Shown here: one piece after another, positions 1 to 53,435 of the stretch | Numbering within the stretch: the first letter of the stretch is position 1 | How the letters are laid out: the number at the start of each line of letters is the position of its first letter | NCBI GenBank assembly: GCA_010093605.1 | Contig: MU004183.1 | Span: forward strand, 2,666,001-2,719,435 | Reading direction: 5' to 3' | Length of the DNA stretch: 53,435 nucleotides | Source: Lophium mytilinum | Lineage: Eukaryota | Notes under the pieces: generated by a model | Told to the model about the DNA's origin: nothing | The model's input: only the letters and a program-made list of their open reading frames with translations | Database searches by the model: none | Made by a program: the position numbers and the translations under genes

Positions 1-224
1 GAGACAATGCGCCAAAACCACATCGAGCTGGATCGCCCAAAACCACCGCTTGTAGAGAACCTTATCCAGCTTATGGAGGCATTGAGGGATACGGCGAAAT
101 GACAGGTCCCATATGTGTGTATCTAGATACCTGAATTCTGCCTCCCGAGAGATGATACAATTGGAAGCTACAGATACATTGCTCTCTAAGACATGAGAAA
201 GTGGAGGGCTTCAAAGTGCCAGTT

Positions 225-14660: not shown

Positions 14661-14791
14661 TTATAAAAAGTAGTAGGTTAGAGTTATACTATAGAAGTAA
14701 GTTTAATATAGAGAAAATTAACCTTTAAAAATTATATATAGTATAACTTTATACTACTATATTTAACTACTATAATATAAAATAGAGTATA
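14661..14791 (+). mobile_element. Short left-end fragment of element X (copy 0)
   Basis: Matches the starts of 19841.. and 26564.. (agaagtaagtttaatatagagaaaattaacctttaa...aaatagagtat). The left flank 14590-14660 has uninterrupted paralogues at ~16331-16410 and, in part, ~16653-16705. Confidence 0.7.
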
Positions 14792-16356
14792 CTATAGTAA
14801 AATAGATTAGTATAGGTATATAAGTAGTATATAATAAATATCTAGGCCTCTTTTTAATTATAGAAAGTAAAGCTTTATTATCTATTATCTTTTCTTTTTA
14901 TAAAGTCTACTCTAGGTAGTATAATAGCTATAGCCTTATCTTTAATATAATATAATTAAGGTTATTCTTTTCTATACTTTCTCTTTCTTAGTAAATATAA
15001 TTTTTACTTTTATAACTATTCTACTTTCTACTACTATATAAATAGTAACTAGTATAGAACTTTAATAGTAATAGCCTTATTCTTAGAAAAAGTAACTAGC
15101 TAAGTTTCTTATTTTCTTCTATATTTCTAATAGAGATATCTATCTATTTCTTTTAGTATTAGTTATAAAGTAGTATTAGTAGCCTATTATTAGTTTAGTA
15201 TTACTAGTTAGCCTATAGCCTCTATAGTCTATTAATAGTTTTTCTATTTTATATTAGCTATTATATTCTATATTAGCTACCTTATATAGTTATAGCCTTA
15301 CTATCTAGATTTAATTCTACTAGAGAGACCTAGTAAATACTAGGCTATAGCTAGCTATTTACTTAAGAAGAGAATATAGATAAGTATAGTATTAATAGAC
15401 CGCCTAGTAAGATTAATACTTCTACTTACTATATAGAAAAGACCTTACTAGAGCTTATATAAAATACTCTAGGCTATTTTATAAAAAAAATTAACCTTTA
15501 TTAACTATTCTATAGTTAGCTAAGTAGACTAGCTCTAACTTATTTAAATTAATAATATATATACCTACCTCTTACTAAAGAACTTAATAGATAGACTTTA
15601 TCTTAAATAAAATATAGTTAAGAAGAAAAAGAACCTAGTCTAAAATAGAGGTAATAAGGTTCTTATTCTTAAGAAATAATAAGTAGAGTAGAGCGCTAAA
15701 ATTATTATACTAAAGAAGAAATAGAAGTTAAGGCTAATTCTAGTAAGTAATACTAGATTCTCTAAGAATATAAGATATAAGCTTAGTATAAGAAAGTTAC
15801 TTATAAAAATATAGAACTTTACTATAGATCTAATAGCTAAATATAATTAGGCTATTACTAAGTATAATACGCTTATTAATGCGTCTTCTAGTAAATAGAG
15901 CTAGCTACTTAAGACTAAGACTAATAAGTAAGAATTATAACTTTTAAATAAGTTAAAAAAAATACTCTAATAGAGCGCCTATATTAAGAAGCTAAAGTAT
16001 AAGATTAAAAAAGCTAAGAATAAAGCTAATTAATATAAAGATAAAACTAAACGCTAGATTACTAATACTACTATTTAGAAAGATAATTTCTTATCTACTA
16101 AATAAGTCTATAAGAACTATACTACTTTTATTAAAGCTTTCTAGGCTAAGAATAAGAGACTTAAGTATTAAGTAACTATTATTACGCCTATAATAGTAAC
16201 TATAACTCTATCTAATAAAACTATACTAGTTATAGCTATAGCTATAACTTTAAAGAAGCTAGATACTATTAATAGGCTATTTCTATTTACTAAAGTAATA
16301 CTAGGCTAATATATAAGATTAATTAGAATATAGGCCTATTTTAATTATTTTATTAG

Positions 16357-16948
16357 TAGGCGTACTAGTATATAGGGCCCGCGTTCTAATTACTATCTTT
16401 ATAGAATTAGAATATATATTCTCTAATAGAAGAAATAGATATAAATAATACTAAAGGTATAACCTATATTAGTATATTAAATATACTATCTATATATAAA
16501 AAGAATAATAAATAATAGTTATAATTAATAAGATAAGATATTAGTAAGAAAATATTAATAGAGTTATATTATATATAGAACTATTAGAGTTTTATACTAC
16601 TAATAACTATAACTACTAGAGAGACTTACGCATATAAATAATAAGAAGATACTAGGCGTACTAGTATATAGGGCCTGCGTTCTAATTACTATCTTTATAG
16701 AATTAAAATATATATTCTCTAATAGAAAAAATAGATATAAATAATTCTAAAGGTATAATCTATATTAGTGTATTAAATATACTATCTATATATAAAAAGA
16801 ATAATAGATAATAGTTATAATTAATAAAATAAGATATTAGTAAGAAAATATTAATAGAGTTATATTATATATAGAACTATTAGAGTTTTATACTACTAAT
16901 AACTATAACTACTAGAGAGATACACGCGTATAAATAATAAAAAGATAC
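16357..16948. repeat. Tandem duplication, 2 x 296 bp
   Basis: Units taggcgtactagtatatagggcc...aagatac start at 16357 and 16653; differences are mostly transitions. Confidence 0.9.
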
Positions 16949-18249
16949 TTTATATTTAGCGCATTTTATATTATTATAAAATAGTAGAGTATAAAGTAAT
17001 TATATATAAACTAAAGCTAATATTAAGTATATTACTTAATAGAGTTAGCAGCCTAAATATCTTATATGCGCACCTATTAGTCTATAGCGCACTAAAATAT
17101 ATAAACCTTAAAATCTAGTAGCCGCCTCTACTATTTATAAATATAATATCTATATAAATATAGAGTAGAATTATTATAGTTAATATATATATTAAAATAA
17201 CTATATTATATATATATTTATAAGCTATAAAAGAATTAGAAATATATATTTTAAATTAGCGCGCGTCTAGTAAATATTATAATATTAGTTTATTAGAAAT
17301 TATAGAAAAACTATAGTAGTATAAAAGAGATATAATATATTATAGTTCTTAATTAGTAGGTTAGCTCTAGCTACCTTAGATAGAAAGATAGAAGTAATAA
17401 TAGAATTTACTATATATTCTATAGTTATAGTAAATAGATAGTTAAATAATAAAATATTACTTAAGAAGCTCTAAAGATTCTTAAAAGTAGTTATAGAATA
17501 AGTTTCTACTAAGCTAACTAGTATAGAGATAGAGCTTTAGAGTAATAATATAGAACTTTCTATATTATAAACCCCCTATATAAGATATAAATATCTATAC
17601 TAAATAGCTAGTATTTAAAACTTAAATTTAATACTACTTTTATATATAGCTTTTACTAGTAATATATAACTCTATATATACTATAGTACTCTTTATTTCC
17701 CTTATTCTTTTTCTCTATAGAGTTTTAGGGTTATTTTAATAAGGCTATATAGGTTTAGAGTTAAACTCTCTAATAGAGGGGGGGTAGTATAAGATAACTA
17801 AAGTATTTATAGTAAATAGATAGCTTATAGTAAGGCTATATAGCTTAATAGTAAGACTATATATATTCTTTCTATATAGCGCCTTATAAGCTATAAGCCT
17901 ATAAGGCCTCTATAAGTAATATATTTACTTTAGGCCTAGATATATCTAGGCCCTCTATATATATTATAATTCTATAAGGATTTATCTCTTAATATATAAA
18001 TATTATTAATTCTATCTATAAGCCCCCTACTATATACTTTTCTCTTATAAATAGAAGTAGGTATAGTAAACTTTACTATCTCTAACCTTTATATATTAAT
18101 ATAGTAATCTCTTTAGTACTAGTAGAGTTAAGTTTAACTTATATAGAGGTAAATATATTACTTAAAATTTAGCTTTATAACTCTTTTTAAGGTAAAACTA
18201 AGTCTTTTTCTAGTTATTAGTTATAAAGGTAAGTAGAGGAGATTAAAAG

Positions 18250-18381
18250 TAAATAATAGAGTTAGTAAAGCTATATAAAATAATAGGGATTATTAAATAA
18301 TAGAGTTAGTAAAGCTATATAAAATAATAGAGAGTACTAAATAATAGAGTTAGTAAAGCTATATAAAGTAATAGAAATTAC
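18250..18381. repeat. Minisatellite, 3 x 44 bp
   Basis: taaataatagagttagtaaagctatataaa... starts at 18250, 18294 and 18338. Confidence 0.85.
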
Positions 18382-19840
18382 TAAAAAAAGAGAATAAAGT
18401 TAAAGCTATAGATAGTGTATGCGTAGTTAGTAAAAGCTTATAGAGTTTAGTTATAGGGTAGATTAGTACTAATACTAAGAATTATTTTAGCTTATAAACT
18501 AGACTACTCTTAACTTCTATATTCTACTATAGTATAGTTACTATATTATTACTCTTAGTAGATATATTATTATCTTTAGCCTTAATAATTTTAGCTAGTA
18601 GCTTATTTAATTAGTATATTCTATATCTAGATAACTAGCTATATAGAGAGATATAGTATTTTAATTATATTAGCCCTCTATAGTATCTATTTAATAAGTA
18701 TATAAACTTTTTAGACTAGAAAGTATAGATAGTAACTAACTAGCTTATATTACCTTTATTTATCTTACTTAGCAGCTTCTAGATATTAGGTTAGTTTTCT
18801 ATTCTTACCGCGCCCCTTTATTAGCTATACTAAACTCTATAGCTAGAAGAAAGATTACTAGATAGGGAAGCTTACTACTATAATATAGAGAGAATTATTA
18901 AAACTAGAGTTATAAAGTATAATAAGCTATATATAAAAATACTTTACTACTACTATATCTTTATTATAGCCTATACTACCCTATATAAGGTAATATACTA
19001 GCAGGTAAATTCTAGTAATAAAAAAAGAAATAGATAGTTAGATAAATACCTCTAGCTAATTACTACCTAGGTAGTACTTCTAGTTAGATATATAGTATTC
19101 TCTTATATATAGAATAACTAGGGCATATTAGTTCTAGATAATAAAACTACTACTAGACTTAGTATCTTAACCCCGCTAGAACTTAGAAAGAGGGCGTATC
19201 TACTAGTAGGCTCTATAATCTAGTATATAAAGTATAATATAACCTAGTTATAGAGATAGTACTAGATATATAAGTAGTAGTACTATAAATCTAAATATAG
19301 ATATAAAGTAATTATCCTCTTCTACTATTATATATTTAGGTAATTATATATTTAAGTATATATAGTACTATATATATTAAGTTATTCTATATATAGAGCT
19401 AAGGTTCTTAAAATTCTAGTACTCTAGAAGATTAAAAATTAAAAGAAGAAGCGTATAATTAGAAATTAGCTTAAGTCTAGTAGAGATTTACTAGAGAAGA
19501 AAAGCCTAGAAAGAGCTACCCTACTACTACTTTAGAGGTAGTAAGTAGAGATTTATCTAAAGAAAGCTAATTATTATTATAAAGAGCTTATTAGCTTTAC
19601 CTAGTACTATCTAGAGAACTCTAAAGATATATCTACCTTTTTCTATATAATAGTAATAATATACTAGTTATACTTAATTTAGTTTAATATTATAGAATAT
19701 ATAGCCCTTAACTATAATTTATATAGTAAGTAGCTAGAATTTAAATACTTAAGATATAGTATTAGGGCCCTATATCTATATTAATATAAGCAGGGCATAC
19801 TATAAATATATAGAGGGTAGCTACTATAAAGTTTACTAGA

Positions 19841-21608
19841 TTATAGAGGCTAGAGGGTTAAAGTTATATAGGGAGAAGTAAGTTTAATATAGAGAAAATT
19901 AACCTTTAAGAATTATATATAGTATAACCTTATACCACCGCATTTAACTACTATAATATAAAATAGAGTATATATATAAAGAAGAATACTTAAAATATAA
20001 TATAATAGCGTTCTATTAACTTTAATTTAATTTATAAGCTATAGTAATAGCTTAAGATAGATATAGAGAGGCTGCAGGGTATATAGGCATAGAATAGAAA
20101 TTACTTAAAGGGTTTAGCGTAAGAATAGCCTTACGCTTAAAAATTAGTATAACTACTACTATATACAACTACTATAATATAGTATAGAAGAAATATATAA
20201 AGAATTATATATAATATATAATATAATAGTAATCTATTAACCTAGAATTAATATATAGGCTATAGTAGTAGTAGTAGTTATATATAGAGGTAAGATTCTA
20301 AATAATAGAAGTTACTTAAAGAGTTTAGTATAATACTAGCCTTATACTTAATAAAGACCTTAACTAGCGCTGCATAGAACTACTATAATATAAAATTAAA
20401 GATATTTATAAGAAAAACTACTTATTATATAATATAATAGTATTCTAGCAATTTAGAAATATTTTATAGGCTATAGTTATAGCTCTAGGTAGATATAGAA
20501 AGTAAGAGAAAAGGGCGGCTAGTAGTATAAAGTATAGCCCTATAATTAAGTAGCCTTCTACTACTATATATAATAACTTCTAGATATTAAAATACTATAA
20601 TAGAGCTATAATACTATATATAGTATATATAATTAAATTTAAAGTATTATAGAAAAGGTAAAGTTCTAGTAGTAGGTGCCTATAGAGGGTAATAGATATA
20701 ATAGAAAGAGTTTTATATTATAATAGCCTTATCTTAGTATAGGTTACTACTAGATAGTATTCTTATATAATAGAAATTTTAGCCGCATTAAATAAAATAT
20801 ATAAAGTAAAGAGTAGAATATAGTTTATATAATATTTATAGATAAAGTAATTAATAGGGCTACTATAGAAAGCCTTTCTACTAGGGCTCTTCCCTAGTAA
20901 CCTTAACTAAGTAGCTGTATCTATAAGGGGTGTTAAAATAGATTAGATAGAGTAAGCCCTATAATAAAAATATTAATAAATTCTTATTTTTAACTAATTA
21001 TACTCTCTAACTACTTTCTACTTCTTAGCTTTATATTCTAAACTATTATCCCTTTTACTACTATATCTAGTAGTTAGTATAGAACGCCCCTAAAAGTACT
21101 AGAATAAAGAAAAGTAAAAAGTAGCTAAATTATATTTAATAGTAGATTTAAACTAATATAAAAGAAATAAAAAGAAGAGGGCTATAGACTAAATAGCTAT
21201 AGTAGAAGAGGCTAGTAAGCCTACTTCTACTTCTACTCTAGATCTATTTCTAATTATCTTTAAAAACCCTAGAGGTCTTTCTAGTATAAATATTAGGGCC
21301 CCTTATTCTACCCGCCCTACGCCTATACCCTTTTAATAACTAATTATACCTTAGAAGCCTTTAGAGGAAACTATTATATAACTTATAATTAGTATATTTT
21401 TTATAATTTTCTAGTATTTATAGTTAGGTTCTAATAAACTTAAGTAGAACCTATCTTAATAGAAGAATTATTACCTTCTACCTCTACTTAATCTATATAA
21501 TATACTTCTCTATAGTAGTCTACTTATAGTAGTACCTATTCTACTATTTCTTCTTTATCTATCTAATCTATATAATCTATATAATATACTTCTTTATAGT
21601 AGTCTATC
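19841..21608 (+). mobile_element. Element X, copy 1 (left ~1.77 kb only; heavily RIP-mutated)
   Basis: Colinear with 26564-28331 at an offset of 6723 at every point checked; ends where a gypsy LTR begins. Confidence 0.9.
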
Positions 21609-24600
21609 TATTATAGCTATAATATAACTCTTATTATAATATATTTCTATTATAAATAATAGTATTATATAGCTTCTATTATATACTACTATTATATAAC
21701 CTTACTTAGCGCTAGCCTTATCTACCTCTTAGCCGGCGCTCCGCGCCCTACTCTCTCTTCTTATAGCTACTTTATTATATACTTAATACTATCTAGTTTT
21801 CTATTATAATTCTATATTATACTATAATATAAAGTAGCTACTCTTCTAGCTTCTAGAAGATATTAAAAGTACTCTTTTTACCTATTTATTTATCTATATC
21901 TATCTACCTATATATATACCGGCACCCCTATAGCTACTAAATTTAATTTCTATAACCTTTATTAATAAGAAACTAAAATAGAAGAAGGCCCTATAATCTT
22001 ATAGTAAAGATACTATACCTTATTATCTATATAAACTAACGCGTAGGCCCTATAAACCTACTTACTATAGTACTTCTACCCGCGCGTGCATAAACTAACT
22101 AAACTAAGCGTAGTTATTTACTAATTAATTTAGCCGCTAAGAATAGTGCTAGGCGCCTAGCTACTATATCTACTTACTAGCTTTTATAGAGGCCCTATAA
22201 TCTTTCTTTCTATACTAATCTTTTTCTTTATCTATCTACCTAGACTATTATCTATCTACTAAAATACCCTCTTCTATTAACTAACTAGTAATAGTTAACT
22301 AGTATAACTCTCTAATACTAGTTTCTTTTTATTTAAGACTCTATAAGTAGAATTAACCGCCTATAATACTAAGTTGCGGTAAATATACTATAGTATATTT
22401 AAAAGCTTTCTCTATCGGTGTATATACTAATAAAAGTAGTAATACTAACCTATACTCTACCCTTAATAGCTAAGCTACCTAGTTAATACTAGCCTCTAAC
22501 TCTTAGTAAGTATAATAAGAGACCTAATATACTAAAGCCTTATATAAAAAGGTAGGTAAATTATCTTAATATAGTATTAGTTCTACTCTAGAGTAGCTAG
22601 CCGCTTATAGTAAACTCTATATACTAAAGGCCGGTACTATTAAACTAGGCGCAGCTATAGTTTATAGTTAATAACTAACTACTATTCTTTAGCGCAGTAG
22701 GCGCTCTCTTAATCTAGAGAATAAAGAGTTCTATATTACCTCTAATAAGAAAGATAATAAGTAGCTAGACTAGGAGCTAGATAAGCTTAATAAGAAAGAT
22801 AATAATACTTAATTCTAGTTAGCTATAGACCTTAGAAAAGTAGTTTACTTTACTTAAGGTAACCTTCTTAATATATAGAATAATAATATTTCTATAAGCC
22901 TAGTTCTTCTATTTACTTAGAAAGCCTAGCGTACTAAGAAGTATATAGATAACCTACCTCTATTAGTATAGAGTCCCTCTACTACAGCTATACTATTATA
23001 GCCTAACCTAGAGTTACCTATACTAGGCCTAGTATACTATAACTCTACCCGCTATAAGTTATACTTTACTATAATAGCTAAAGGAATTATATTCTATATT
23101 AACTATAATAGAGTTGCTAATACTATTAATATTAACCTTAACTCTACTAAAGTATTCTATAATATAGTTTCTAAGTACTATAAAGATATATACTATAGAG
23201 TTACTATATTCTAGTAGAACCTAGAATCTTATTAAGAGAATTACTAAGCCTAAGATATAGAGCTAACTACTCTTTATAACTAAGCTTAAGACTCTAATAA
23301 AATTTTATATCTATAAGCTAAAGTTACTTAACTAACTAAAGATATTACACGTCTTTAATTAGAAAATAAGAAGGTATATACTAAGTATACTTAATAGTTT
23401 ATAACTAAATATAAAGCCTATAAAGCTAAAACTCTTCTTCTTACTAAAGTATACTTAGTAAATAAAGCCCTCTAATAAAATATTACTATAGCGTAATAGA
23501 ATTTAGACTATCTATAAACCTAGCGTAATTACTTTAAAGAGCTTAGCCCTATCTATAAGTAGTAGTATACTAATCTAAAAGTAAACTAGATAGTAGTATT
23601 AGCGCCCGCCTAATTATATTACGCTGCCGCCGCCGCTGCAGGCAACCTTAACTATAACTTAAAAGATAATAATAATAATACTAATTATAATAACTTTACT
23701 ATTATAGATAATAATACTATAACTTAGCTTATACGCCTGTAGCTCTATAGAGACTATAAGCCTAAGTTCTATAACCTCTAGAAATTTACTAGTAAGAGTA
23801 ATAAATACTAATACCTATCTTAGAAGAGCTACGCCTATACTATCTTCTAATATAAAAGCCTAGCCTACCTAGATAAGTAGAGTAAGATAGAATATATTAA
23901 ATTATACTATATTAATTATATAGAAGCTACTATCTATAGCTATACCTAGTTTAAGAAGCCCTTACTAAATAAGAACTTTAAGACTCTTAATAAAATATTT
24001 ACCTATATAGACCTATATTTTACTATCTTTAATAAGTCTACCTATATTAATAATATTCTCTATAGTAATAAAATAAAGATAAAGGGCTATAAGTTATAGA
24101 ATATATATATACTATATTTTAAAGAGATAACTAATATTAATAATAAGAACTAGATTTCTTTCGCCTTTAAGAAAGAATAGCTTAAGCGCCTGCTACGCCT
24201 AGATCTTAGCTACTAAGTATTTAGCAGTACTAATAGCTACTAAGATTAGCCTACGCTTATCGCTATAGTATTCCGCGCTAAAGCCTTTCTTTAGAATAAT
24301 GCTTAGCGTAATATAACTACCTAGCTCTCTTAATTATCTAGATTCTAAAATAGCTATAGTAATAACTACTTAAGTAATTACTAACTAAATAACTACTAGA
24401 ACTAAGACCGCCGCCCTAAGTAGAGCTATAAATAATAGTTATCTATTTATAATAATAAGAAGAACTAAGGTAACTGCCCTATTTACCTTCCTCTAGTAGT
24501 TATAGTAGTACTACGCACTAAAGGCTATTATTTCTACTATATTAAGAAGAGCTATTAAGCTAATAACTCTAAGCGCCTATATGCTAATAAACCCCCTCTA

Positions 24601-26563
24601 TTAAAGTGTAAGCTAACTAAATATCTATCTAAAGCTAATAATAGCCTTAAACTTAAGCTTTCTATAATTTATTATATAGATAAAGATAGTAATAATTTAA
24701 TTTCTATTAATAGTAATAGAGAGAACCTTACTATTATTACTTATGCTAATAAAACTTTATTATCTAGTATTCTTAGTAATAGTAATAGGGATAATAATAG
24801 TAATAGTAATAGAAAGAATTTTATATAGGCTCTAACTATAGTTATAGATAGAGCTATATAGAATTCTTTCTAAGTACTATTATAGTCTATATCTAGAAGC
24901 TAGAATAGCTACCCCTAGAGCTAGATAAGATCTAGCTATTAGCTTATTCTACTAACTTAATCTAAGAAGTTACTTATAGTAAATAGTTAAATTTTAAATA
25001 TAGAATTTAGATACCTACTAGTATAACTAATAGCTACTACCTTACTAATATAGGCTACTTCTACTTTACCTTTATCTTATATTTATATGCTAAAGCTAAT
25101 AAGCTTATAATACTACTACTAGCTACCTCTATTCTACTATACTTAGCTAATAGTATACCTATAAAGCTTATAACTTATAAGGCCTAGTTTATATTATTCT
25201 TAGAAGCCTATATAGAGAATATATAGTACTATATTATTAATTTTAAGAGCTATAATATTATATTAGGCATACTATAGTTTAAAAAGTATAAGCCTAATAT
25301 TATATAGGGTAAATACGCCCTTAATTTTAATAAAGACTTCTATTATAATTACTATCTTTATATAGATAGATATAGATATATATAGAGTAATAGTAAAGAC
25401 TATAATATTATTTAAGTAGATAAGCTTATATATAATAACGCCCTATAAAATATTTTTAATAAATATTAAAAACTAGGCTTAGAGCTAGATAAAGCTAAGA
25501 ATATAATAGCGGCCTACTAGAAGCTTTAGTATAATAGTAAAGAGAACTATATTATTTAACTATAAGATAATAATTAGAAAAAGCTATAATAAATAGAAGA
25601 TTATAAGCGCTATTAGCTTTAGCCTATAACTTATTCTCTATAGAGCTCTACTCTAGAAGTAGATCTAGTATTATATAGCCTTACTAAACTTAATAATATT
25701 CTTAATAATGCGTAAATAGCTGCTTTTACTACTAATATATTTACTATTAATCTATCTAATTATTATAAATTCTTTAAAAAGATAAACCGCCCCCCTATTA
25801 CTAACTAGAAAATTAAAGCTTTACTTTCTAACTAGCTATATTATATAGCTAAAGCGTAGAACCCCTAAGAAGTAAATAAACTACTGCCTTATAGGCTAAT
25901 AGATTATATAACTAATATTCTCTCTAGCTCTAAACTATCTACTTATAAGGTATATAGCCTTTTAAGAGACTAGGCTACTATTATTAAAGCCTTTATTAAT
26001 AAGATGCATACTAAAGAATTTATCTATTCTAGCTTATTATTATATACTATACCTATACTAGTTATTAAGAAACTAGAAGAAGAACTTTAAGTCTATATTA
26101 ATTATTAAGGCCTTAATAAAATTAGTATTAAAAGTTATAATATACTACTACTTATTAAAGATAATCTCGCCTTATTAGCTAAAGCTAGGTACTATACTAA
26201 GCTTAATATAATTAGCGCATTTAATGCACTATAAATTAAGAAAGGTAATAAATATAAGATAGTCTTTTTTACTTATTAGAAGTTATTTAAGTTTATAGTA
26301 CTTCTATTTAGATTATATAATATATCTAGTTTCTTCTAGGCCTATATTAATAATACCTTATAGAAATACCTTAATAACTTCTATACTATATATATAGATA
26401 ACGTTCTAATATATAGTAATATATTAGAAGAATATAAAGCGTATATTCTTATAATTATTACTAAGCTTTATAACGCTAGACTATTTCTTAATATCTATAA
26501 ATATAAATTTACTATTAATAAGGTTAAATATCTTAGTATACTTATTAGTATTAACGGTGTTTA
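21609..26563 (+). mobile_element. Ty3/gypsy LTR retrotransposon A, RIP-inactivated, cut off within RT
   Basis: Putative 5' LTR ~21609-21829 (TATTATAGC...TATAATA, RIP form of TG...CA). Gag Zn knuckle relic ~24525 (CFxCxKKGH), protease relic ~25040 (ALTDTG), RT relic 25860-26563 with tatatagataacgttcta = Y(M)DDVL at 26391 and VKYLG..I..DGV at the cut. No RNase H, integrase or 3' LTR follows. Confidence 0.85.
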
Positions 26564-26599
26564 TTATAGGGGCTAGAGGGTTAGAGTTAGGTAGGGAGA

Positions 26600-29760: not shown

Positions 29761-29789
29761 AATATAGCAAGTAACTATACAATAGTTCC

Positions 29790-32480: not shown

Positions 32481-32502
32481 ACTACTAAATAGCTACTACT
32501 AT

Positions 32503-40863: not shown

Positions 40864-41054
40864 TATTAGGGCTCAAGGTTGGAACATTAGATTAAATAGT
40901 ATTAATATTAACAAAAGATAAATATAAGAGAGAAAGAGGTTCCTAGGACGGACATTATAATAATCTAAAGGGCGGAGTAACGTTTGCCCGTTCCGCAGAG
41001 CCTCCATTACATAACCTCTAGTTACGTGTTATGCGCAATTATATGGCCATAACA
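40864..41054 (-). repeat. 5' LTR of gypsy B
   Basis: tattagggc...ccataaca; direct repeat of 32503-32693. Confidence 0.93.
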
Positions 41055-42584
41055 ACTATAAGGTAGCCTAACTAAGCTAATATATTAAAGAACGGGCTTA
41101 AGGGGGGGCAGTTAACCTTAGTATAGACGTAGTTGCAAAGAAAGTATAGAATATAACCTAGGGAAGCCCAGGAAAGTTAAAGATAATAATAATAGAGGAT
41201 AATATTATAGGCCCTAGGGGTTAAGTTAATCTAAAATATATCTAGCTTAGATTTAAGCACTATACACTAAATAGCCCAAGGGCTTATTTAGGTAGGATTC
41301 TAATAATTAAAGAATTCCGGAATTATTTAGCAATATAGAAGAAGCAAGAGGGGGATATAAGTAGTTAGTTATTAGATAAAGAGTATAAGTATAAAGAGAG
41401 TTTAGGTAACTATAGCTTAGAAATAGAGGACTTAGAGGACTCAGGGCAAGAGGCCTAGAAGAATAAGGCTTAAGTAGAAGAGTTTTAAGGAGCATATAGA
41501 TTTAAGTATTAATAGGTAGACTAGTAGGGGCAGCGTTATAAAGAAGAATTATTAATAAGGAAGATAGTAAAGTAATTAGTATAAGATATAAAGGGCGTTA
41601 GTAGAAAGGCTTTTAGCTAGGCTCTTATATAGTACGCAAATACTTATCTAGTAGGTGCGTAGCGGTAATATATATAAGAAGAGAGGCAATAATAGGCGTG
41701 CTTAATATAAGTAGTAAAGGGCCCTAGTAGAAAGGCTTTCTAGCAAGACCCTTATACTATAGGCAAATAGTTATATAATAACGCGCAATGTTCTATTAAC
41801 CTATCTTAGCATAGTGCTATATTACTAGAACTAGGTAATATATAGTGTAGTATTGCAGATTAACCGTAAACGCTTACATATTAGTAAAATTAAGTAAAAC
41901 GCCGATATATTTACACCTATAATATTTTAACCTTATATAATACACAGCTATTATATTAACCTTAAGAGTTAACTTAAGCAGTTTACTGTTAAAGGCTTAG
42001 CGTCTTAGCGGCCAGCGGCTATTAGCCCGGCCGCCTATAAACTTATCCGCTACCTAGTAGCTTTAACTTTCTTACTTCTATACTAATCTCTCCTTCTATA
42101 CTACTGCACCCCTATTACTTCTACTTATCTAGCTACCTGCAGAACGGTTGCGCGCTAGTTTCTTACTTGCTAGACAATAGTTAGCAGCTTTCTAGCTACG
42201 TTAGAGCCGCAATTAGCTTATTTTAGGTGTGTTTTTAGCTAGCGGTTAAGCCTTTTAGTAAGTTTACTATCTAGTAGATAAAATCAAGTTACGTTATAGC
42301 TAATTCTGCTAATAGGTTTATTCCATCGCAATTTCTCTAAGAGTAGAGTAAGGTAAGCGTATTATAAGGATTATTATAGGAAGGCTTTCTACTAGAGCCC
42401 TTTACTAGTCTTAGTAGATTAGTCTACCTTAATTTTAAAGATGCGGCGGCAGGAAATATTAAGAAAATAATAATACTAAAAATACCCGGCATAGTATAAA
42501 GGGTCTTAGTAGAAAGCCTTTCTACTAGGGCCCTTTACCTGCCTCTATTCTTCTATTATTTAAAATAAGCTAATACATTAATAG

Positions 42585-45500
42585 GCTAGCTATAAATACC
42601 TTAAGTAATAGGGACCCTAGTAAAGTAGTAGTAAAGGTTGCATCCCTATATATATTACCTGCAACTAACCTAGTAGATAGCTATAAGAAATAATCTACTT
42701 CTTCTAAAGTACTAGAAGATCTAAATTCTACCTTCCTACTAGTTACTAAATTAGGGGTTAATACCTATAGCGATTTAAAGCGCAATTAGCCGGCCACTAT
42801 AATAGATCTAGAGACGCTTACATTAGTAAATAGCAAAGTAGTTTATCTAGATAGTAATAACTATAGTAATAACTCTAATGTCCCTAAGAACTCTAATAAA
42901 AAGTAAGAGAAGATTTAAGCGCTAGTTACTAGCAGTAGGAGAGATAAAGAGTTAGAGAAGTTATAGGCCTTAGTAAACACGCTGTATACTAGTAGAATAA
43001 AGTTAGCTAAGCTTTATAGTTAAATAAAAGCAGAACTTAAAGTAATTCTAGCTAAGCCTAATTTCTAAGCAATTTAGAATAAGTATAAGGATAGGTATTT
43101 AGACCTAAAGCGCGCTATATATAGTTAGGATTAAGAGGCCAGTTTTACTACTATCCTAAACGCTTTTAAGACTAGCGAGTTATATAATCTACAGCAATAT
43201 ACTACTCCTTAGCCTAAGATAGATAACTATAAACCCGTAGATTAGGCAGCTTAATTTATTAGTTAATACTTTAATTACTACTAGAAGCGGTTTAGTAGGT
43301 TTTTATATAACCGCGCTAATATTACTAATAATAAAGCGCTTAGAATCTTCTTTAAATTAAAGAAAAATATAGAATTTAAGAGTAGCCCGTTTTAAGCCAG
43401 TAGAACCGCCTATACTAAGAACTAAATTAAGATATAGAATGTTCTTTAAAAAACAAAGCTTAGTCTAGCACCGGCACCTAAGACCCCGGCCAAAACCATT
43501 ACTTATAGCAGTAAGAATATTAACAGGAAGCCTTTCTATTAAGGCCCTTCTAGGCCTCCCTATTAGCAGTCGCCCTCTTATTTTACTAAGGAGGAACTCG
43601 CGGCCATTAATATAGAGGTTAACGTAGACAACCCTATCTAGGGGTTATCTAAAGAGGAAATTGCTGCAAACCTAGTTAATAAGGAGAAAGGCAATATTAA
43701 TATTACTAGCGCTAAGTACATTACCGGCACTATAAAATAGGAGCTTAAGTTAGTAATTACGCATGCTAAGCACACTAGAGTAATAATTAACCGGAACTTG
43801 TTAAAGTTTCAATATAACGCATATTAGGTAATTAGATAGATAGCAGGAGATTTTATATATACCGTTAAATAGCACCTAAATATGCGCGCTGCAGATCTAA
43901 ATAAGGATAAGTACGCTAATCTAGACGGTATTAAACATGCCTAAAATATAAAGGCTAATATAAGGGCTACTACTATTAATGTAAAGGATATTATCCCCTT
44001 TACTATACTAACCGCGGCAGATCTTACAACGTAGAGTATACTCCGCCTTCTAATAACTAATAAAGCCTATTAGCTAGATAACCTTAAAGAAGCAATAAAG
44101 GCCCTACATATTTATAACTATTAGGAACCCCGCCTTATTATAATAAATAGCAATATTTACTTAAGGTAGTAGTAGATTACCGGGGCTTACTATATATACT
44201 ATATTATATAGAAAGGCTTTCTTAGTAGGGCTTTAATTATAGATAAGGTTAGTATTAGAAAGACATTTTTAATAGCTACCCTTATTAGATATATAAGTAA
44301 TTTCTCTTTAAAGGGTGTTAATAGAAAGCCTTTCTACTACCCCCCTAATAGTTTCTCTTAGCATCTACTAATTTAATTATAGCTTATTGCTAAGCGCCAG
44401 CGCAAAGTTGCAGATAAGAAAGACCCCGGGCCGGCAAAGCCCTTTCTTTTTCTTATGCCTCCCGTTTTAGTACACTAAATAGCGAATAAACTTGCAAAGT
44501 TTAGTTCTAAACTTAAGCTCTATATCTATTTATTAAAGGGCTAAGTTACTTTCTATAGCACTACGTTTCTATATAACACCTTAACTAGGGACTATCCCTT
44601 ATTTAATACTAAAAACGAGGCGAATACTAAGAGTATTATAATCGCTAGCTATTAGGTAATAGCCGGTTAGTATAGTCCCCAGCCCGCATTAAAGTAGTAT
44701 AGCGATAATAATCTTACTAAGCTAAAGAACTAGGTTAAATATTACCTAAGCTCTACCTAGCCCGGTCTTTTAAGTAGCTATTTTAACGTCTAATTTATAG
44801 ATAAGTACTAGCTTATTAAAAGCAACTAAGTAAACCTCTACCTAACCGCGTTATAGCTTTACTTAGACTTTACTATACTCTATAGTAGGACCCCGCTATA
44901 TATAGGCATTACTAATATACCTACTTATATATCTTTTATAGAACTAAGAGATAAGCATCTATAATTCCGCACGTACCGCTTAAAACCCGGTAAAGCTAAG
45001 TTTATTCCAGGTACTAATAATCCGTTTAAGCTTTCTAATAACTATTTAGGTATAATTTTCTAGTATACACGCAAGGCTTTTAAAAATTTTATTCTACCTT
45101 TATTTAACCCGTAAGTTATTACATAAAGGGCCCTAGCAGAAAGGCTTCTAGCCAGGGCCCTTATCTCTCCTCTTATTTACTTTAATTTTCTAACATTTCT
45201 CTAGGATTATATAGGGGCTTTATTTACGCTTAATTTTTAGTAAGTGCATAATTGCTTACTTATACCCTTCTACATGCCTAAATAATTCTACTAATCCTGC
45301 TACCCGAATTAGAGGATTACTTCCGCGGTTAGTTACGCGAGTAATTAAGCTATAGCCTATAAAACTAGGCCATATTATCTATACTAATAAATCGCTAAGC
45401 TACCTTAAGTTATTAATAGTTCCTACTAAGAACTGCGTAGGCTAGCGCACCTATACATTTAACGCATGCTCCGTGCATGCTCTTAACCTTATAAGTACTG

Positions 45501-47970
45501 CGCTATTTTTAGTCTACTCTAAGCGCGCTATAATAGCATATCTGCAAGAGGAGGTCTTAAATTTAGAGGGCAACAAGATTAAGAACAGCCCGAAAATTAT
45601 TCCTCTTAAGAATAATGGCGGTTACTAGTTACAGGAAATAGACATTTTGCGAGGCATAATAAAGTAAATTGCCCGGAATAAGAATGTCTAAACTAACTCT
45701 AATTAGAAAGACTTTAAAGTAAAGTCCGCATTCTTTTATTATATTATCGCCCTTTTTATCTATAATGCCCCTAAAGTAGCTGCACTACTATACTATTTAG
45801 CTAACAACGTTATTAAGCGTATAGAGAAGGTTATTATCTAGACTAACTACCTAGATAAGTAAATAATTCTCGCTAAGATTATTAACTATTACAAAATAGA
45901 TGCTTATATATTAGCCTCCAATCTCTCTACTACTAACCGGGACAACCTTATCTTAGTATTTAACAACCCTAACTCTAAAGTAAAGATCCTTATTACTAGT
46001 TACTAGGCTAATAGAGCTAGGCTTAATCTATAGTCTACTTACTATAATATATATCTTTTTAACCCTACAGGCTCTATTTAGATTAAGGAGCAGGCGATAG
46101 CGCGTTTATATAGAATTAGCTAGAAGTTTACTATTATAGTAACCGCGTTCTTTATCTAGAACACATTTAATGCCTTTACTCTCTCGCGCCAGGTATAGAT
46201 AGCGCTTCCTGGTCTTGCTACTGCGTTAAACACTAACTAGATTAAGGTAGAGGGGACCTCTAAGAAAAAGCTAACCCTAGATAGCTAGTATGCGTAGGTA
46301 ACCTATAATAATAAGAGTATCGCACCCCGCCTTATTACAGGTAAAATAGATATTTTAAATATGCTAGTGGAATTATATATTAAGCGCTTTAACTTCCTAT
46401 AAGATATTCTTATATTTCTAATAACTCTTATATAAGGTAATATAACTTTTTAGTCTAGTAGGTTTAGCAATAAGTTCTAAAAAGAACAAGCGTACGAATT
46501 TACTAAATTAGAATTAGAAGAAGAGTAGAAGAAGGGTGCAAGTAGAGCGCCTAAGAAACCGCGTGTTAATAAGCCAGGTTTAAGGCTTAAGCGTTGTCCT
46601 GCAAGCAGTAAGTTCGCCCTTATAGGTTCTAGCAGGAAGGCTTTCTACTAGAGCCCTACTTACCTCTTTATAATTTGCTAATCTGTATTTTATAGTAAAA
46701 GCCACCCTAAAGCTAAAGCTAAAAACGCTAGAGTAATAAAATAGTAAAGCTTTAAAGTAGAAGCGCAAAGCTAGTACTACACTAGCGGCTGCCGTTAAGA
46801 AGTGTAAGCCTAACCCTAAGTCTACTATTATAGTTAAAGACTTAGATTCTACTAAATCTAATATGCCTACCCCTATAAAGAGCGCCACTAGAAAGGCTTA
46901 TGCCCCTTTTATCTATTAATATAGGCCAGAGCATAACCCTTTACATTAAGTACCCGCTATTTTTAGTAATATAAACGGCGACAACTCTTTTAGTAGGCTA
47001 AATAGTAATAACTCTAAAGGTAAAAAGTATAAGAATAATACTTTATTCCTTATAAAGTATATAGATAAGAATTTATCCTAGGGCCTTTTTAGAAAGCCTT
47101 TCTACTAGGGCCCTTTAGTATCGCCTATTATATTACTTAAGTGCTAACTATTATAGCAGCTCCTACTTCCGCCCGTTAACCCACTTTAACTCTACCTTCT
47201 AGCCCTCTTAGCACCTTTAATAGACGCCTTATTAGGACCCCTTCTATAGACCCCGTCCCGTCGCCTAATATATAGAAGAAGAGGTAGCGCAAAATATCTA
47301 CTATCTCCTTACAGGATTCTATAGATAATCTAGTTTTTTATTTACTACTAAAAGCTAACATTAATATAGATAATAAGCAGAATAAGAAGAATATTAAAAC
47401 CCCCGACGTTAATATAGAGAACGTCCTATCTAAGACTAATAAGTAAAATAGGGGGTATCTTAATAATTACCTGGATTTTACTACTACGCTATCTAAAGTT
47501 GCCTTTAAGTGTAACAGCAACTATAGTAGTAACTTAGACAACCCGCCAGAATTTATAGAAGGGGCCTTGCAGCCAACCCTAAAGACTATATTCTCTAGCA
47601 ATACTAATAAGGGTTAGAAGCACTAAGACGTAAAAAAGAAGCCCACTATAAAGAAGAATAAAGCGGCTAAGAAAGACTCTATATCTAAATCCCTTATATA
47701 TTATCTATATAAGTATATAATAGAGAAAGAGATTACTAAGTAGCGCCCTTAGCGCGAAAGGAAGGCTACTAAGAAGAAAGCTACCGCGCAGAAGTCTGCA
47801 AACTCTACTAGACCGAAAATAGACCTACGCAGGCGGAAGAATAATCCTAATATTAGCTAACCGCCCGCGGCATTAGGTGCAAATACTAACCCTAATAGTA
47901 AAGAGAATAGCAGTAAATTAAAGAGAACTAGCATAGCGCTAGAGAAGTCTAATAGTAAGGTATAACTAGT
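42585..47970 (+). pseudogene. RIP-inactivated SNF2-family helicase/ATPase gene of X, with introns
   Basis: Reverted motifs in consistent frames: LRWWQITG (44161), motif I GALIVDEVGIGKT (~44227), motif II FVDECQLIKS (44800), motif III SGTP (44884), motif V GAGLNLQ (~46013), motif VI EQAIARLxRIGQ (~46090). Intron 45111-45204 links the frames correctly. Gene ends approximate. Confidence 0.8.
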
Positions 47971-50452
47971 AGAGTCTTTATAAGAAGGCTTTCTATAGGG
48001 GCCCTAGCCCTACTTTTTAGATTTAATTTAGCATCTCTTAATATCTTTTTCTTTTTCTTTCTAATAGTTCTAATTAGGACTACTTTCCTTACTATTAGTT
48101 TGCACCTACTTACTTAGTACTACTAACTTTTTACTATTCTAATTTCTTGCTTGCGTTCTATTCCCTACCCTCTAATAGTTAGCACTACTCTATAGTAGTA
48201 GTACACTTTATACCCTTAAAATCTCCTAGTTTATATTTAGCCTCTAGATAGCGGCTTACTTAACTATAGAATATAGCGTAATATTTACTACTATAACTAT
48301 ACCTTACGTATCTTATATATAATATAATATTTATTTTATTTATCTATATTATAGGGGGCGGTCTTATCCGCCGTAGTTTATATAGTTAGAGAGGGTAATT
48401 ACATTCTAATGCTGCTCTATTGTATCTACACTATTAGCATGTGCTCCCTATCTTTTTTATAGTAAAGAATCTACTATTATATACCCTATAATTTAACCCT
48501 CTTTGCTAATATTAATTACACGGCTAGGCTAAGTCCTCTCTATAGACCCTATCTATTAATACGCTGTATATAACTTTATTCTATCTATAGTTTTCTAAAG
48601 CGTATATTATTGCATAATACCTAAACTAACTAGAAGGAGGGTTATTTACATATATTGTTGTTAAGTCTTTAGCGTACTAGGCGGCGGAAGGCAATTTAGG
48701 TGTCGCAGTTATACTTTCTAGTTTATCGGCGATATATTTAAACCTACTTATTATTAGTAAGGATAGTAATTCTTAAGGGGTTACAGTCTTACCGTTTATC
48801 GCTTTTAATATAACTTTCCTTCTTCTTATAGTTATAAATAGTCTCTATATTATAAATAGAACTACTCTTTTATTCTAGTATTTTCCTTTACTTCTATTCT
48901 TATAGCCGTCTTAATAAGCGCTTTAGCCGTATAAGCTTCCTCCTTGCAACTAAATCTAGAGTGGTATTTACAACCTCGCGCCTAGACAGAGTATTAGGCG
49001 TAGTAAGGAAAGAAGCTAACCGCTCTATTAGAATATATATATTAGGTAGACGTAGATATATCTACCCCTACTAAACATTATCCTCGGCGTTTAGAGTTGC
49101 TATGCTGCTGCACGTTAACCTTAGTATACCGGGCTATATTTTATATACTTTAGCCTAGTTTAGGGTTGCAGCCGTCTCTATATTAGGTTAAGCCGCTTCT
49201 TATCTTATAAATATCCGCCGGAACGCTCTAGAAAGGACGTATATAGTATACTAATTAAGACTTATATATAGTATTATGCGTGGGCTGCTACTATACTATA
49301 AGGGGTAGGTAGTAGTTAGAAAAAGGTTTAATACGCTAGTTTCTATTAATCTTAGTATATTACGTGCTAACCTCTTATATTATACCTATACTTATAATTA
49401 ACCTTTAGAGGTTAACTCTATATACTATATATAAATAGCAGCTCTAAGAGTTTTATTTTATTACTATACTATATATATATTTTACCTTAGGCGGGACTAG
49501 TAGGTCCCTATAACGTATAGTTTACGTAACTATACCCTGCGTCGCTTCAGCGCCCGCCCGATTTACTCTTCCTCTCTTTTCTTACTCCTTTAGCTTGTTC
49601 CTCTCTACACTATAGCTATAGGTAAACTAACAGCTAGAACTAGCATAGAAGAGACTCTTAATTATATTTAAAGCACTTTAGAGAGATAGATTAATAGTAC
49701 ATAAAGTTTTAAAGCTGGTAGGCTGTAGGAACACCTATATAACTAACTTAGAAGAGTAGCACGCTAAGAATAGCACCGCCACAACAGGCACACTAATAGG
49801 CTCGGGTACTATTACTTAGAACCCTCTTCTTAACCCTAATATACCTAGCAATACCGCAGATCTCGCCGCATAAAACGCCAGAAAGAAGTCCTTATTATTT
49901 ATTTCTAAAATAACTTCTAAGCTAGCTAATATAGACTAACTCTATACAACTAAACTGCTTACCGCGGAGGATACTACTAACCCTACCTACATCTATGCCT
50001 AGAGAGAAGCACTTTTTATAACTATCTAGAATTAAAACGGAGGTTCCCTCTTTAGTAATAGCCTAGGCACGCCTACTAATACTACTTTTAATATGCAGCC
50101 TACTATAACTAAGTCTTAAACTCTCTATAACTATACTAACCCCCTATCCTAAGCTACTAGAAATAGCGCCCTACCTTTTAAGTCTAATATTAATATTAAG
50201 CCTAAACTAGCCAATAAAGTTAATATAAAGATTAAGCCTAGTATTAAGATTAAGCCCGGCCTTATAAGTAGCCCGGATACTACAAGTTTTTTAAGAATAA
50301 TTCTAAGAATAAGGAGCTTCTACGCTTACAGATTAATATAGAAGAGAAGAAGGCAAGGGCTATATAAATAAGGTTTAAGGCTATAGCTAGAGAGTAGAAG
50401 CAGTAGGGCCTAATCTACTCCTAAATCTAAACCTTAAATAGAAGTAGCAGCG

Positions 50453-51691
50453 CCCTAACCTATTTCTATCTCTACGCGCTTATTAGTAAATACCTAACTC
50501 TTTATCTAGCGCTACCAGGCCCTTACTATCTTCTAACCTATCTTCTCCTTTAATAGTAACGCGTCTCTACCCTTCTAGAACTGCACCCTAGCCCTCCACG
50601 CTACCTACGCGGAAATTATCTAATAGGCTTTACTCTTTTACTTTATCTTACTCTTATTTTCTTCTTTAATAGCTTTATCTCTACTCTTCTACTATTAGTC
50701 TTATTTTCTTCTACTATAGTAGAGCCTCTAGACCTAACTCCTAGTAACGGCACTAGTTTACCCTTTACTACTATAGTAAAACCTAAAGATTTATCTTCCA
50801 TTACTACTACTACCGCGTTACTAACTTGCAAGCCCTAAAATTGCGGACATTATAGAAAGAAAGCCACTCTAAGGTGCAGTCGCTGCGCCAGCGTTATCTA
50901 CTGCAATGCGGATTATTAAAAGGCTAACTAGAAATTATCTAATGCGCCGCCTTCTTATATAAAGGTTATTATACTATAATAAGACTTCTATACTTTAGCT
51001 TAAATTTACTAATAGATAGCAAAGAGCGTAAAGTTTAGCGGATTATTTAAGGGGTAGAAATTAAAACGGGTTCCGGCTCTATTATATAACTATAAGCTGC
51101 GATATACTTTACCTCTTATAAACTTAGCCCGCTACACATAAATATAGAGTCTCTCCTACCTAAGTGCTAAAGAATAACTTCTAGTAGAGTAGCTACAGCT
51201 ACTCTAGCTTATATAGATTAAACTAGCACTCTACCTTAGCCTTCTTAGGCTAGCCTTTAACCTTATATATATACTAGCGTAGGCAGTAATAATTATTCTT
51301 ATTCTTCTTTTATACTAAGCTTAATTACTACACCGCTTTCTAGCTTTAAGAAGAGAAAGATGGAGGTTACAACTCCCCTTAGTAGTTAGAACTCTACCTA
51401 CGCCCCGCCATTAATAGATTAGACACGCGGAGGCTCTATTCTAGGTGCCCTAAGCGTGCTATAAAATCTACTTAGCATTAATAAGTTTAAAAAGTAGCAT
51501 AAAGCCGCCGTTACCGCCGCTAGAGCCTAAGCCTAATCTACTCCCTAACCTATCCCTATCTCTATACGCTTATTAGCAAACACCCAGCTCTTTATCTAGC
51601 GCTGCCAGGCCCTCGCTATTTCCTAGCCTATCTTCTTATTTAATAGTGACGCCTTTCTACCCTTCTAAAACTACACTCTAACCCTCTACGC
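50453..51691. repeat. ~149-bp direct repeat pair (50453-50600 and 51543-51691)
   Basis: ccctaacctat...ctctttatctagcgct(a/g)ccaggccct...ccct(c/t)(c/t)acgc present twice. Confidence 0.85.
50842..50965 (+). pseudogene. MYND-type zinc finger relic within a RIP-inactivated gene of X (~49600-51900)
   Basis: Reads CGH(C)(G)KKATLRCSRCASVIYCNAD(C)(Q)KA(D)(W)K...(H); parentheses mark RIP-reverted codons. Confidence 0.7.
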
Positions 51692-52788
51692 CGCCGGCTC
51701 CCCCTACTCCTTTATAACTACTAGCCCCTGCACCTTAAAGAAAGAAGCTAAAGAAGCCGCCTCTACTCTTAGCCTTACCCTCCTCTCCTCTCTTAAAGCC
51801 TTAGGTACAGTCTCTACCCTAAGTAAAAGTAAAAAATACACTCTAACTCTAACTTCTACTACTTCTACCCCTAAAGAACTCTAAGAAAACTTTACTAGTA
51901 TTCTTATAGAATTCTACTAAGCCTCTAAAATCCCTATTCTAACCTTTGCTAAGTTTAAAACCAGCACCTACTTCTCTACTAAGCTATTGCTAGCCTTATA
52001 CTACTAGTTAGACACCCCCTTTAGCGGCCGCGCTATACTCTACCTATTAAAGAAAGCGGCTTATATAGCTATAGTAAGAAAGGCGGTACTCTAGCTATAT
52101 ATAGAGATAGCTACCCGCTATATATAAGCCCGCGTCTATAAAGAAGTAGTAGAAGACAGTAAAAGGTTCTAAGAACACCGCGGTGTAGCTGCTAGGTAGT
52201 GCGGCGGCGCGGGTGCTAGCGCTAGCAAGCGAGCTAGGGCTACCGTAGCTAGAGTATTAGTAGGCGGCGCTAAGTGCGCTAGCGCCGGGGCTATCTATAG
52301 TAAGTAGTTTATTCCCAGGGAGTAGAGTAGGTAGGGAGGATAGAGTAGTAGTAACAGTAAGATATATAGTTAGAAAGAAGGCGGCAAGAAAGAAGTATGC
52401 GCGGTTAATAGTAATAGAGTTAGAAGAAGTATTAGAGAGGAGGAAGGGGGTGTTAGAAAAGGTATTAAAGAAGGGAAAGAGGAAGGTAGAGATAAGAAAG
52501 AAGGATAAGAACTATTATTCTTATTAGGAGTATAGAGAGACATATAATAGGAACTTATTTATACTTACTTAATTTAGGTTATAGTAGGGGAAGCATATTA
52601 GAAGTATAGTAAATAGAAAGTATAATTACTTCCGCAGTAATATAAGGGTTACTATAGAAAGGCTTCCTATAAAAGCTCTATAAAAAATATTAGTATAATA
52701 TATATATATAAAAAAGATATATAAATTTATAATTAAAAGAATCTCTATAGAAAGCCTTCTAGTAAGAACACTATACTATAATTTAAAA

Positions 52789-53217
52789 TATTTCTATAAT
52801 ATACATTAAAATAGATATATACTTAATAGAATTTAAAGAAGTATTTTATACTATATACTAGTATATAGACATATATTACGCCTAATAAGACTAATAGAAA
52901 TATTTCTATACTATATACTAATATGTAAGTATAGGGTACGCCTAATAAAGCCTTAATAAATGTTTCTATAGTATATACTAAGATAAACGTATATAGTACA
53001 CCTAATAAAATTTTACTAAATATTTCTATACTATACGCTTAATAGTAGGTATATAGTACGCGTCTAGGGATTTTAGAGATACTTCTATACTATACGCTTA
53101 CTAGTAGGTATATAGTACGCGTTTAGGGATTTTAGTAGATGCTTCTATACTGTACGCTTACTAGTAGGTATACAGTACACATAACAAAATTTTACTCAAT
53201 GTTTCTATACTGTACTA
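52789..53217. repeat. Telomere-adjacent tandem array of ~60-bp units (~7 copies), each with an internal inverted repeat
   Basis: t(a/g)(t/c)ttctatact(a/g)ta-like starts at 52841, 52901, 52961, 53021, 53080, 53140, 53200; unit core tactgtacgcttactagtaggtatacagta. Confidence 0.85.
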
Positions 53218-53235
53218 CTGGTCGCCCGCTAGCAC

Positions 53236-53251
53236 AGGGTTAGGGTTAGGG

Positions 53252-53292
<41 letters not shown>

Positions 53293-53294
53293 GG

Positions 53295-53335
<41 letters not shown>

Positions 53336-53337
53336 GG

Positions 53338-53378
<41 letters not shown>

Positions 53379-53435
53379 GGTTAGGGTTAGGGTTAGGGTT
53401 AGGGTTAGGGTTAGGGTTAGGGTTAGGGTTAGGGT
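53236..53435 (+). repeat. Telomere, (TTAGGG)n with three TTTAGGG variants
   Basis: Uninterrupted G-rich repeats to the window end, oriented as a right chromosome end. Confidence 0.98.

Follow-up and report, generated by a model that had tools for sequence, protein, structure and literature searches.

Three same-way copies of a helicase-bearing repeat at a chromosome end of Lophium mytilinum: a plausible but tentative case of serial end loss and re-capping

Lophium mytilinum is a Dothideomycete, and the window analysed here (a stretch of 53,435 nucleotides from contig MU004183.1 of assembly GCA_010093605.1, positions 2,666,001 to 2,719,435 of the forward strand) terminates in TTAGGG repeats, which identifies it as a chromosome end. 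The analysis covers this one chromosome end, read within the window. Its terminal part contains three copies of a repeat, named X, which all lie on the plus strand and share one common left end (at 14660, 19840 and 26563 for copies a, b and c, as found by self-comparison). We tentatively favour, somewhat short of an even chance, the reading that the end of this chromosome was lost repeatedly and that it was re-capped each time by an X unit with its own telomere. This serial-capping interpretation is plausible and has gained some support, but it faces a strong and more ordinary rival.

Distal to about 14000 the window consists of an AT-rich block of some 39 kb, followed by about 32 TTAGGG repeats at the window end. 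The GC content distal to 14000 is 17-38%, the longest open frame there is at most 105 residues, and TpA/ApT is 1.5-2.0 in the block (against 0.68 in genes). Low GC, short frames and a high TpA/ApT together are the signature of repeat-induced point mutation (RIP). Copies b and c are 88% identical over 1791 aligned positions (19840-21630 against 26563-28356). Because RIP makes transitions only, we repeated the homology search in purine/pyrimidine space, where 14693-14792 of copy a matches 19874-19973 and 26597-26696 exactly. This search returned the same homologies only; for X copies a and b, for segment Z (between copies a and b) and for the retrotransposon gypsy A (between copies b and c) it revealed no hidden continuation in the window. 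Since it adds nothing, the ends of copy a (around 14809) and copy b (around 21630) are true breakpoints and not points where similarity fades. The initial annotation had stated that the rest of the first X copy is missing and that all three copies point the same way, and both statements hold.

A number of candidate extensions were tried and rejected. Continuing copy b past 21630 into gypsy A gives an alignment score no better than 18% of controls, and a lenient, RIP-tolerant alignment over the same extension scores the same as its control. Hidden RIP-masked homology was considered for a continuation of copy a, for Z as an old X and for the end of Z as a gypsy reverse transcriptase (RT); the scores of 60, 81 and 114 fall within the range of the controls (mean 85, maximum 122). 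Nor is the left border of X a copy of its right end or of the 60-bp array located there: when the three borders are aligned with the last 218 bases, their scores fall at 0.13-0.65 of the background.

For none of the X copies does the window contain a target duplication and a resumption of the interrupted sequence; the right-hand sides could lie beyond a truncation. Telomere repeats are not seen at the cut ends of copies a and b either, where other DNA follows. The ordinary rival explains these features by nested insertions, after which one terminal truncation within the innermost X took away all right-hand halves at once and was healed by telomerase. First X would have entered Y (the left flank of copy a), and Z would have entered that X; a second X would then have landed in Z and received gypsy A, and a third X, placed in gypsy A, would in turn have been the target of gypsy B. 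This account needs one truncation only, and transposon nesting is the rule in RIP-affected AT-rich blocks (PMC3105345). We consider this nest less probable than serial capping, yet more probable than any of the other alternatives discussed below.

That insertion into X occurs here is shown by gypsy B, which counts in favour of the nest. This element carries a pair of long terminal repeats (LTRs) and is flanked by the 5-bp target duplication ACTAT (32498-32502 and 41055-41059). Moreover, the empty gypsy B site is seen in contigs of other X copies, in which 32497 is followed directly by 41055 (5 shared bases). It is therefore the normal two-sided insertion with a target duplication that it had been taken for. 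Gypsy A had been described as cut inside its RT at 26563, with the remainder and the 3' LTR absent. The absence is borne out: no gypsy-like pol segment is found in the window outside gypsy B other than gypsy A's own, and gypsy A has no second LTR. The position of the cut needs a small correction. Similarity of the gypsy A pol to gypsy B is found at 25734-26561 only (tblastx), with 47% protein identity over 221 residues of the RT, and the RVT_1 match, whose end lies near 26540, spans positions 53-203 of the 205 in the model (E 2.2e-4, below the Pfam cut-off). A match up to position 203 places the cut just behind the RT core and not inside it. The 5' boundary of gypsy A probably lies at 21631, as judged from the end of the X homology and not from an LTR.

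RIP load gives an indication of relative age. The RIP index, defined as (CpA+TpG)/(ApC+GpT), is 0.0-0.14 in every segment of 14000-26562 against 0.33-0.56 in every segment of 26563-53235, while the GC content is 0.17-0.26 in the proximal and 0.31-0.38 in the distal part. The step coincides exactly with the left end of copy c at 26563. Copies b and c show 214 differences (204 transitions and 10 transversions) and 3 gaps, and among the transitions 188 have T/A in b and C/G in c against 16 the other way. This asymmetry indicates that copy c arrived later and from a less mutated source; combined with the RIP step it marks the distal 27 kb as a later, less mutated block. Gypsy B (RIP index 0.56) arrived later still. 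The distal 25 kb of copy c is at the RIP level of its first 1.8 kb, which suggests arrival as one block. The RIP gradient fits serial capping and nested insertions alike: in a nest the oldest elements lie outside and the youngest inside, and the GC and RIP values follow this order equally well.

A feature that may help to tell the two readings apart is found 14 bases inside the left border of X, where a degenerate telomere-like tract, AGGGTTAGAGTTAGGTAGGG, has the same G-strand orientation as the real telomere. It consists of approximately 3.5 degenerate repeats; exact agreement extends over GGGTTAG at most, which is about one repeat, and TTAGGGTTAG does not occur in exact form. It is the best plus-strand telomere-likeness in the AT-rich block, with a score of 15 (window mean 4.5, standard deviation 1.6) that is reached by 0.24% of 5000 composition-matched shuffles (p 0.0024). 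The pattern is also present in copies a and b, further decayed by G-to-A changes. Under the nest both this left-border tract and the telomere-like 60-bp array at the other end of X would be coincidences.

At this other end 20 unique bases separate the 60-bp array (which ends at 53215) from the TTAGGG repeats. The initial annotation had X running through a structured array straight into the telomere, and this succession is indeed present. Copy c appears to be one unit all the way to the telomere, which can be followed in part through other copies that are continuous across the gypsy B site. Within the telomere itself the TTTAGGG variants at 53267, 53310 and 53353 are exactly 43 bases apart (six TTAGGG and one TTTAGGG, three times), after which the repeats are pure; such a higher-order period could result from recombinational copying of telomere repeats. 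Further inwards two 149-bp repeats (84% alike, 1090 bases apart, at 50410-50601 and 51500-51691) each follow a degenerate CCCTAA-like tract. These tracts run opposite to the real end, and the one at 51521, with a score of 21, exceeds every other telomere-like site of the window apart from the telomere itself.

The fixed proximal end of X, its short telomere-like tract and the complex tandem repeats of 211 and 84 bp that follow also recall telomere-targeted retroelements. On this account the 1.8-kb part common to copies b and c would be a non-autonomous element of the Athena/RPP_Circe or MoTeR2 type, reverse-transcribed onto eroded ends, with the left end as a 3' terminus bearing templated telomere-like repeats and the right end as a 5' truncation. 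The common length of 1.79 kb is close to that of RPP_Circe/MoTeR-type elements. The arrangement fits the description of RPP_Circe, and also that of MoTeR relics with 3' termini on a short telomere stretch. Several results speak against it. No RT is detected on either strand of 26563-32504 or 47000-53235, and extending the six-frame search to 41055-47056 gives none either, although RIP lowers the sensitivity of such searches and an RT-bearing partner may exist elsewhere. An Rfam scan of 14000-53435 at E<=1 gives no hammerhead ribozyme and no other match of note (one unrelated weak match). In addition, the right ends of copies a and b have no telomere-repeat cap, and the equal RIP level of the first 1.8 kb and the distal 25 kb of copy c suggests, as noted, arrival as one block. 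We therefore regard a retroelement as improbable.

Copy c contains a decayed helicase gene that is directed towards the telomere. Its frame yields 176 phmmer matches at E<=1e-3 (best 1.2e-36). When seven of the homologues were scanned, SNF2-rel_dom was present in five, four of which also have Helicase_C, and one homologue is labelled SNF2-family helicase by its source. With the first 60 homologues by id as queries, tblastn places the relic at 44050-46350 on the plus strand and nowhere else. On the relic itself Pfam gives a weak Helicase_C (E 0.007), which is the sole match in 41055-47056; six-frame scans, run in pieces with stop codons read as X, show no Pfam family in 26563-32504 or 47000-53235. 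Neither a transposase nor an LTR or terminal inverted repeat was found in X. In and around the relic a short palindromic repeat with a core around GGGCCCTAGTAGAAAGGCTTTCTACTAGGGCCC recurs (42372, 42505 and 47085, also 44309 and 45124), which looks like a small hairpin-forming mobile element. An ORF-like stretch on the plus strand of copy c (28560-29600) has few stops and a protein-like composition; for 28560-30119 no homologue was found among 8000 scored candidates of 286-910 residues in a word-based search.

To see how X is represented elsewhere in the genome, we used contigs from two runs of one sample that were placed on 26300-46299 at a likeness of at least 80%. The number of contig pieces is 5139 and 5114 for the two runs, and their differences from the window are overwhelmingly transitions. 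Relative to the exact-match contigs listed, the summed depth is approximately 15-35x over X and 8-17x inside gypsy B; taken as a rough guide and not as a copy count, this corresponds to some 15-35 copy equivalents for X. X is thus a multi-copy family with RIP-type divergence. Contigs from elsewhere in the genome also join 29582 to 44436 with 7-11 filler bases, a hint that X has variants with internal deletions. At another locus a contig shows a cut gypsy B-like RT, and 38 bases beyond it the left end of X. Both observations, the many copies with deletion variants among them and the X left end next to a cut retrotransposon at a second locus, agree with the nest.

The same contigs bear on the quality of the assembly. 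Mis-joined terminal repeats could in principle have produced false junctions at 14660, 19840 or 26563, given that the region is highly repetitive in the genome and that no contig bridging 26563 is present among the contigs listed. Against this, 898 and 988 contig pieces (for the two runs) are at least 99% alike to the window stretch, and the RIP step matches the junction to the base. The X copies moreover differ by 12% and have unlike flanks, which makes a collapse or mis-join unlikely. An assembly artefact is accordingly the least probable of the explanations considered, and we give it very little weight. Table 1 lists the features of the window.

Table 1. Features of the window, ordered from the chromosome interior towards the telomere (positions in the window).
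Feature	Positions	Strand	Remarks
Genes	1-14000		Haem-peroxidase-type oxygenase; S15-type peptidase; DUF2235/Tle1-like hydrolase; aldehyde dehydrogenase piece
Flank Y, left of X copy a	14471-14661	+	Copy of 16203-16402; cut 49 bases into 296-bp repeat unit
X copy a	14660-14809	+	Only the first ~150 bases of X; RIP-saturated, RIP index 0.0
Segment Z	14810-19839	not assigned	RIP-saturated; GC 0.228, RIP index 0.04; holds Y-like copy and 296-bp tandem repeat (16203-16949)
X copy b	19840-21630	+	First 1.79 kb of X; contains the 211-bp and 84-bp tandem repeats
Gypsy A, Ty3/gypsy-type	21631-26562	+	5' part to just past the RT core; RNase H, integrase and 3' LTR missing; 5' boundary putative
X copy c, proximal part	26563-32502	+	Homology to copy b over 26563-28356; multi-copy in the genome
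Degenerate telomere-like tract	26577-26596	+	AGGGTTAGAGTTAGGTAGGG; 14 bases inside the left border of X
Gypsy B, complete two-LTR element inside X copy c	32503-41054	-	LTRs 87% alike; RIP weakest of all segments (index 0.56)
X copy c, distal part	41055-53235	+	Up to the telomere junction; continuous with 26563-32497 in other copies; RIP index uniform, 0.33-0.47
Decayed SNF2-family helicase gene	44050-46350	+	Directed towards the telomere; broken by stops and short palindromic repeats
Subterminal tandem array	52833-53215	+	Units of ~60 bp, some with TTTAGGG/TCTAGGG-like motifs
Telomere	53236-53435	+	About 32 TTAGGG repeats, with TTTAGGG variants at three places; reaches the window end

Under the favoured reading of repeated loss and re-capping, the DNA distal to a break would have been lost each time, with breaks in the 296-bp repeat, in Z and in gypsy A. 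X, as a multi-copy, helicase-bearing and telomere-adjacent segment, would then have capped the end anew, always arriving left border first and with its own telomere. Most likely it would have been copied by break-induced replication (recombination-dependent copying), or else a segment comprising X and a telomere would have been captured from a different chromosome end; the process may have been guided by the telomere-like tract at X's left border, or the segment may have broken there. Between the events transposons (Z, gypsy A and gypsy B) would have inserted into the then-terminal X, and a new break distal to the start of X would have set off the next cycle. From the anatomy of the locus we infer both the former free end at each junction and the way in which X was copied onto it.

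Four considerations lead us to prefer this reading. X has a telomere-associated look, with an outward-directed helicase relic, a subterminal array containing telomere-like motifs and a telomere-like left border. It lacks the machinery for transposition. A nest built from three same-way insertions, each of them into the newest element, is unlikely, and closely similar dynamics are documented in other fungi. The initial idea that the end was truncated serially and that X supplied each new one finds support in the common left end, the single orientation, the lack of resumption, the telomere-like tract, the RIP step, the 188:16 asymmetry and the telomere-associated look of X, but the seeding of a telomere by X goes beyond the evidence.

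The nest would require a mobile element of at least 18 kb, and X shows no transposase, RT, terminal inverted repeat or LTR. All three copies would have the same orientation by chance (1 in 4), and each insertion would have to hit the most recent one.

Several observations weigh against serial capping, however. The evidence comes from one chromosome end, and the two sequencing runs may be the assembly's own source, so that they are not independent of it. All support except the telomere-like tract is equally expected under a nest with one truncation, and the tract, whose degenerate pattern copies b and c share, is therefore part of X itself and does not represent a healed end. There is no clean TTAGGG run at any X junction. 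Both inner copies are broken inside an inserted transposon and not inside X, which the model does not predict, and the break in gypsy A shows no evident homology to the left border of X that could have primed copying. Judged by eye from the contig of the other locus, the left end of some X copies may lie about 38 bases to the left of the one found here.

To these points should be added the flank Y. It does not resume beside X, but a paralogous intact copy is found 1.5 kb downstream, and this recurrence weakens the statement that nothing resumes in the case of copy a. Comparison of Y with the copy in Z gives 75% identity over 202 bases (blastn), with 98 bases at 85%, and in purine/pyrimidine space 14618-14661 matches 16359-16402 and 16655-16698 exactly. 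The copy at 16203-16402, 1.5 kb downstream of X copy a, runs on into the 296-bp tandem repeat.

This tandem repeat (16354-16949) has two units that are 95% alike, and its start plus approximately 150 bases upstream is what is duplicated as the left flank of copy a. A duplication of the copy a flank that appeared to span 700 bp comes down, on inspection, to the approximately 200 bp found by BLAST. For the remainder of Z the six frames of 14810-19842 give no Pfam family at E<=0.05; there is no X-like or gypsy-like homology in Z, and tblastx against gypsy elements yields no coherent match. The relic ORF that was said to be cut at 19840 consequently finds no backing.

A more far-reaching version of the re-capping idea treats X as a self-contained end-capping unit, that is, a free or copied linear helicase-bearing segment that joins broken ends by its defined left end and carries or seeds a telomere. 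We think it quite improbable, ranking it just below the retroelement. If true, chromosome ends in this fungus would be renewed by cassette replacement and not by telomerase healing alone.

Outside the AT-rich block the picture is that of ordinary fungal DNA: positions 1-14000 have a GC content of about 50% and contain ordinary fungal genes. Among these, the DUF2235 ORF shares 100% identity with a protein of Lophium mytilinum. At 13950-14010 the GC content falls from approximately 52% to a RIP-saturated 18% within a few tens of bases, with no recognisable element end at the boundary. TTAGGG-like words at 13893-13925 were set aside; they sit in normal GC-rich DNA and look like chance.

Units with comparable properties are known from several organisms. 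The Y' and TLH subtelomeres of yeasts are helicase-bearing multi-copy units that lie next to the telomere in fixed orientation, have proximal internal telomere-like repeats and spread by recombination. Among the traits of these and LmTelo-type units (see below), X adjoins the telomere in fixed orientation (53235/53236) and carries a helicase gene, albeit decayed and not of the RecQ type. The helicases Y'-Help1 and TLH are not known to be SNF2-type, and stacks of cut copies after truncated foreign elements are not the usual Y' picture. The Drosophila elements HeT-A, TART and TAHRE form head-to-tail stacks in which the fixed end of each unit sits on the eroded end of the previous one and nothing resumes. 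These, however, are retrotransposons that replace telomerase, whereas here normal TTAGGG repeats are present and X has no RT.

Among fungi the closest parallel is Leptosphaeria maculans. Its telomeres combine TTAGGG repeats, complex tandem repeats and helicase remnants in copies cut to varying extents, intermixed with other transposons and affected by RIP (PMC3105345). The components are the Athena-type RPP_Circe, an unclassified repeat (UTLR) in which large tandem repeats occur beside helicase remnants, and LmTelo repeats that carry RecQ (PMC3105345). RPP_Circe has a consensus of 1719 bp, with its 5' end towards the telomere and a 3' end with complex tandem repeats that include modified TTAGGG (PMC3105345), and the authors call the distal telomeric part 'highly prone to truncation' (PMC3105345). 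Our locus resembles these repeats (RPP_Circe, UTLR, LmTelo1/LmTelo2) in being a RIP-affected AT-rich telomeric block of a Dothideomycete. It differs in that no Circe-like RT was found and that the relic is SNF2-type and not RecQ, a comparison made by description and not by sequence. The portions of the L. maculans accounts we could draw on mention no serial stack of copies that share one fixed left end.

The MoTeR elements of Magnaporthe oryzae undergo truncation, de novo telomere formation, healing, break-induced replication and end-joining, and their internal relics keep one fixed terminus beside telomere repeats and mark former ends (PMC7367193). In Fusarium oxysporum the FoTeRs co-localise with telomere-linked helicases (PMC12857005). 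These elements have a single orientation at chromosome ends, a fixed terminus next to a short telomere stretch and a variably truncated other end (PMC7367193, PMC12857005), and X resembles them in its orientation, its variable truncation and a fixed terminus that lies near a degenerate telomere-like tract. MoTeRs and FoTeRs are non-LTR retrotransposons with an RT that lie in clean telomere repeats, in contrast to X, which has no detectable RT or clean TTAGGG junctions and a far longer terminal copy. As for Lophium mytilinum itself, a literature search on this species and telomeres gave, in the text consulted, no description of its chromosome ends.

Overall, the locus is a variant of known fungal subtelomere turnover, from which it differs by the SNF2-type relic, the lack of an RT and a three-deep stack with a base-identical left end. 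If the nest applies, it would be an ordinary transposon nest beside a healed break. If, on the other hand, the end was lost and re-capped serially, the window would hold a fossil record, with RIP load giving the order of events, of at least three rounds in which a wild saprobic fungus lost and repaired this end. An SNF2-type helicase would then be added to those known from helicase-bearing subtelomeric units, and besides the MoTeR relics there would be a second case in which internal tags show where a chromosome once ended.

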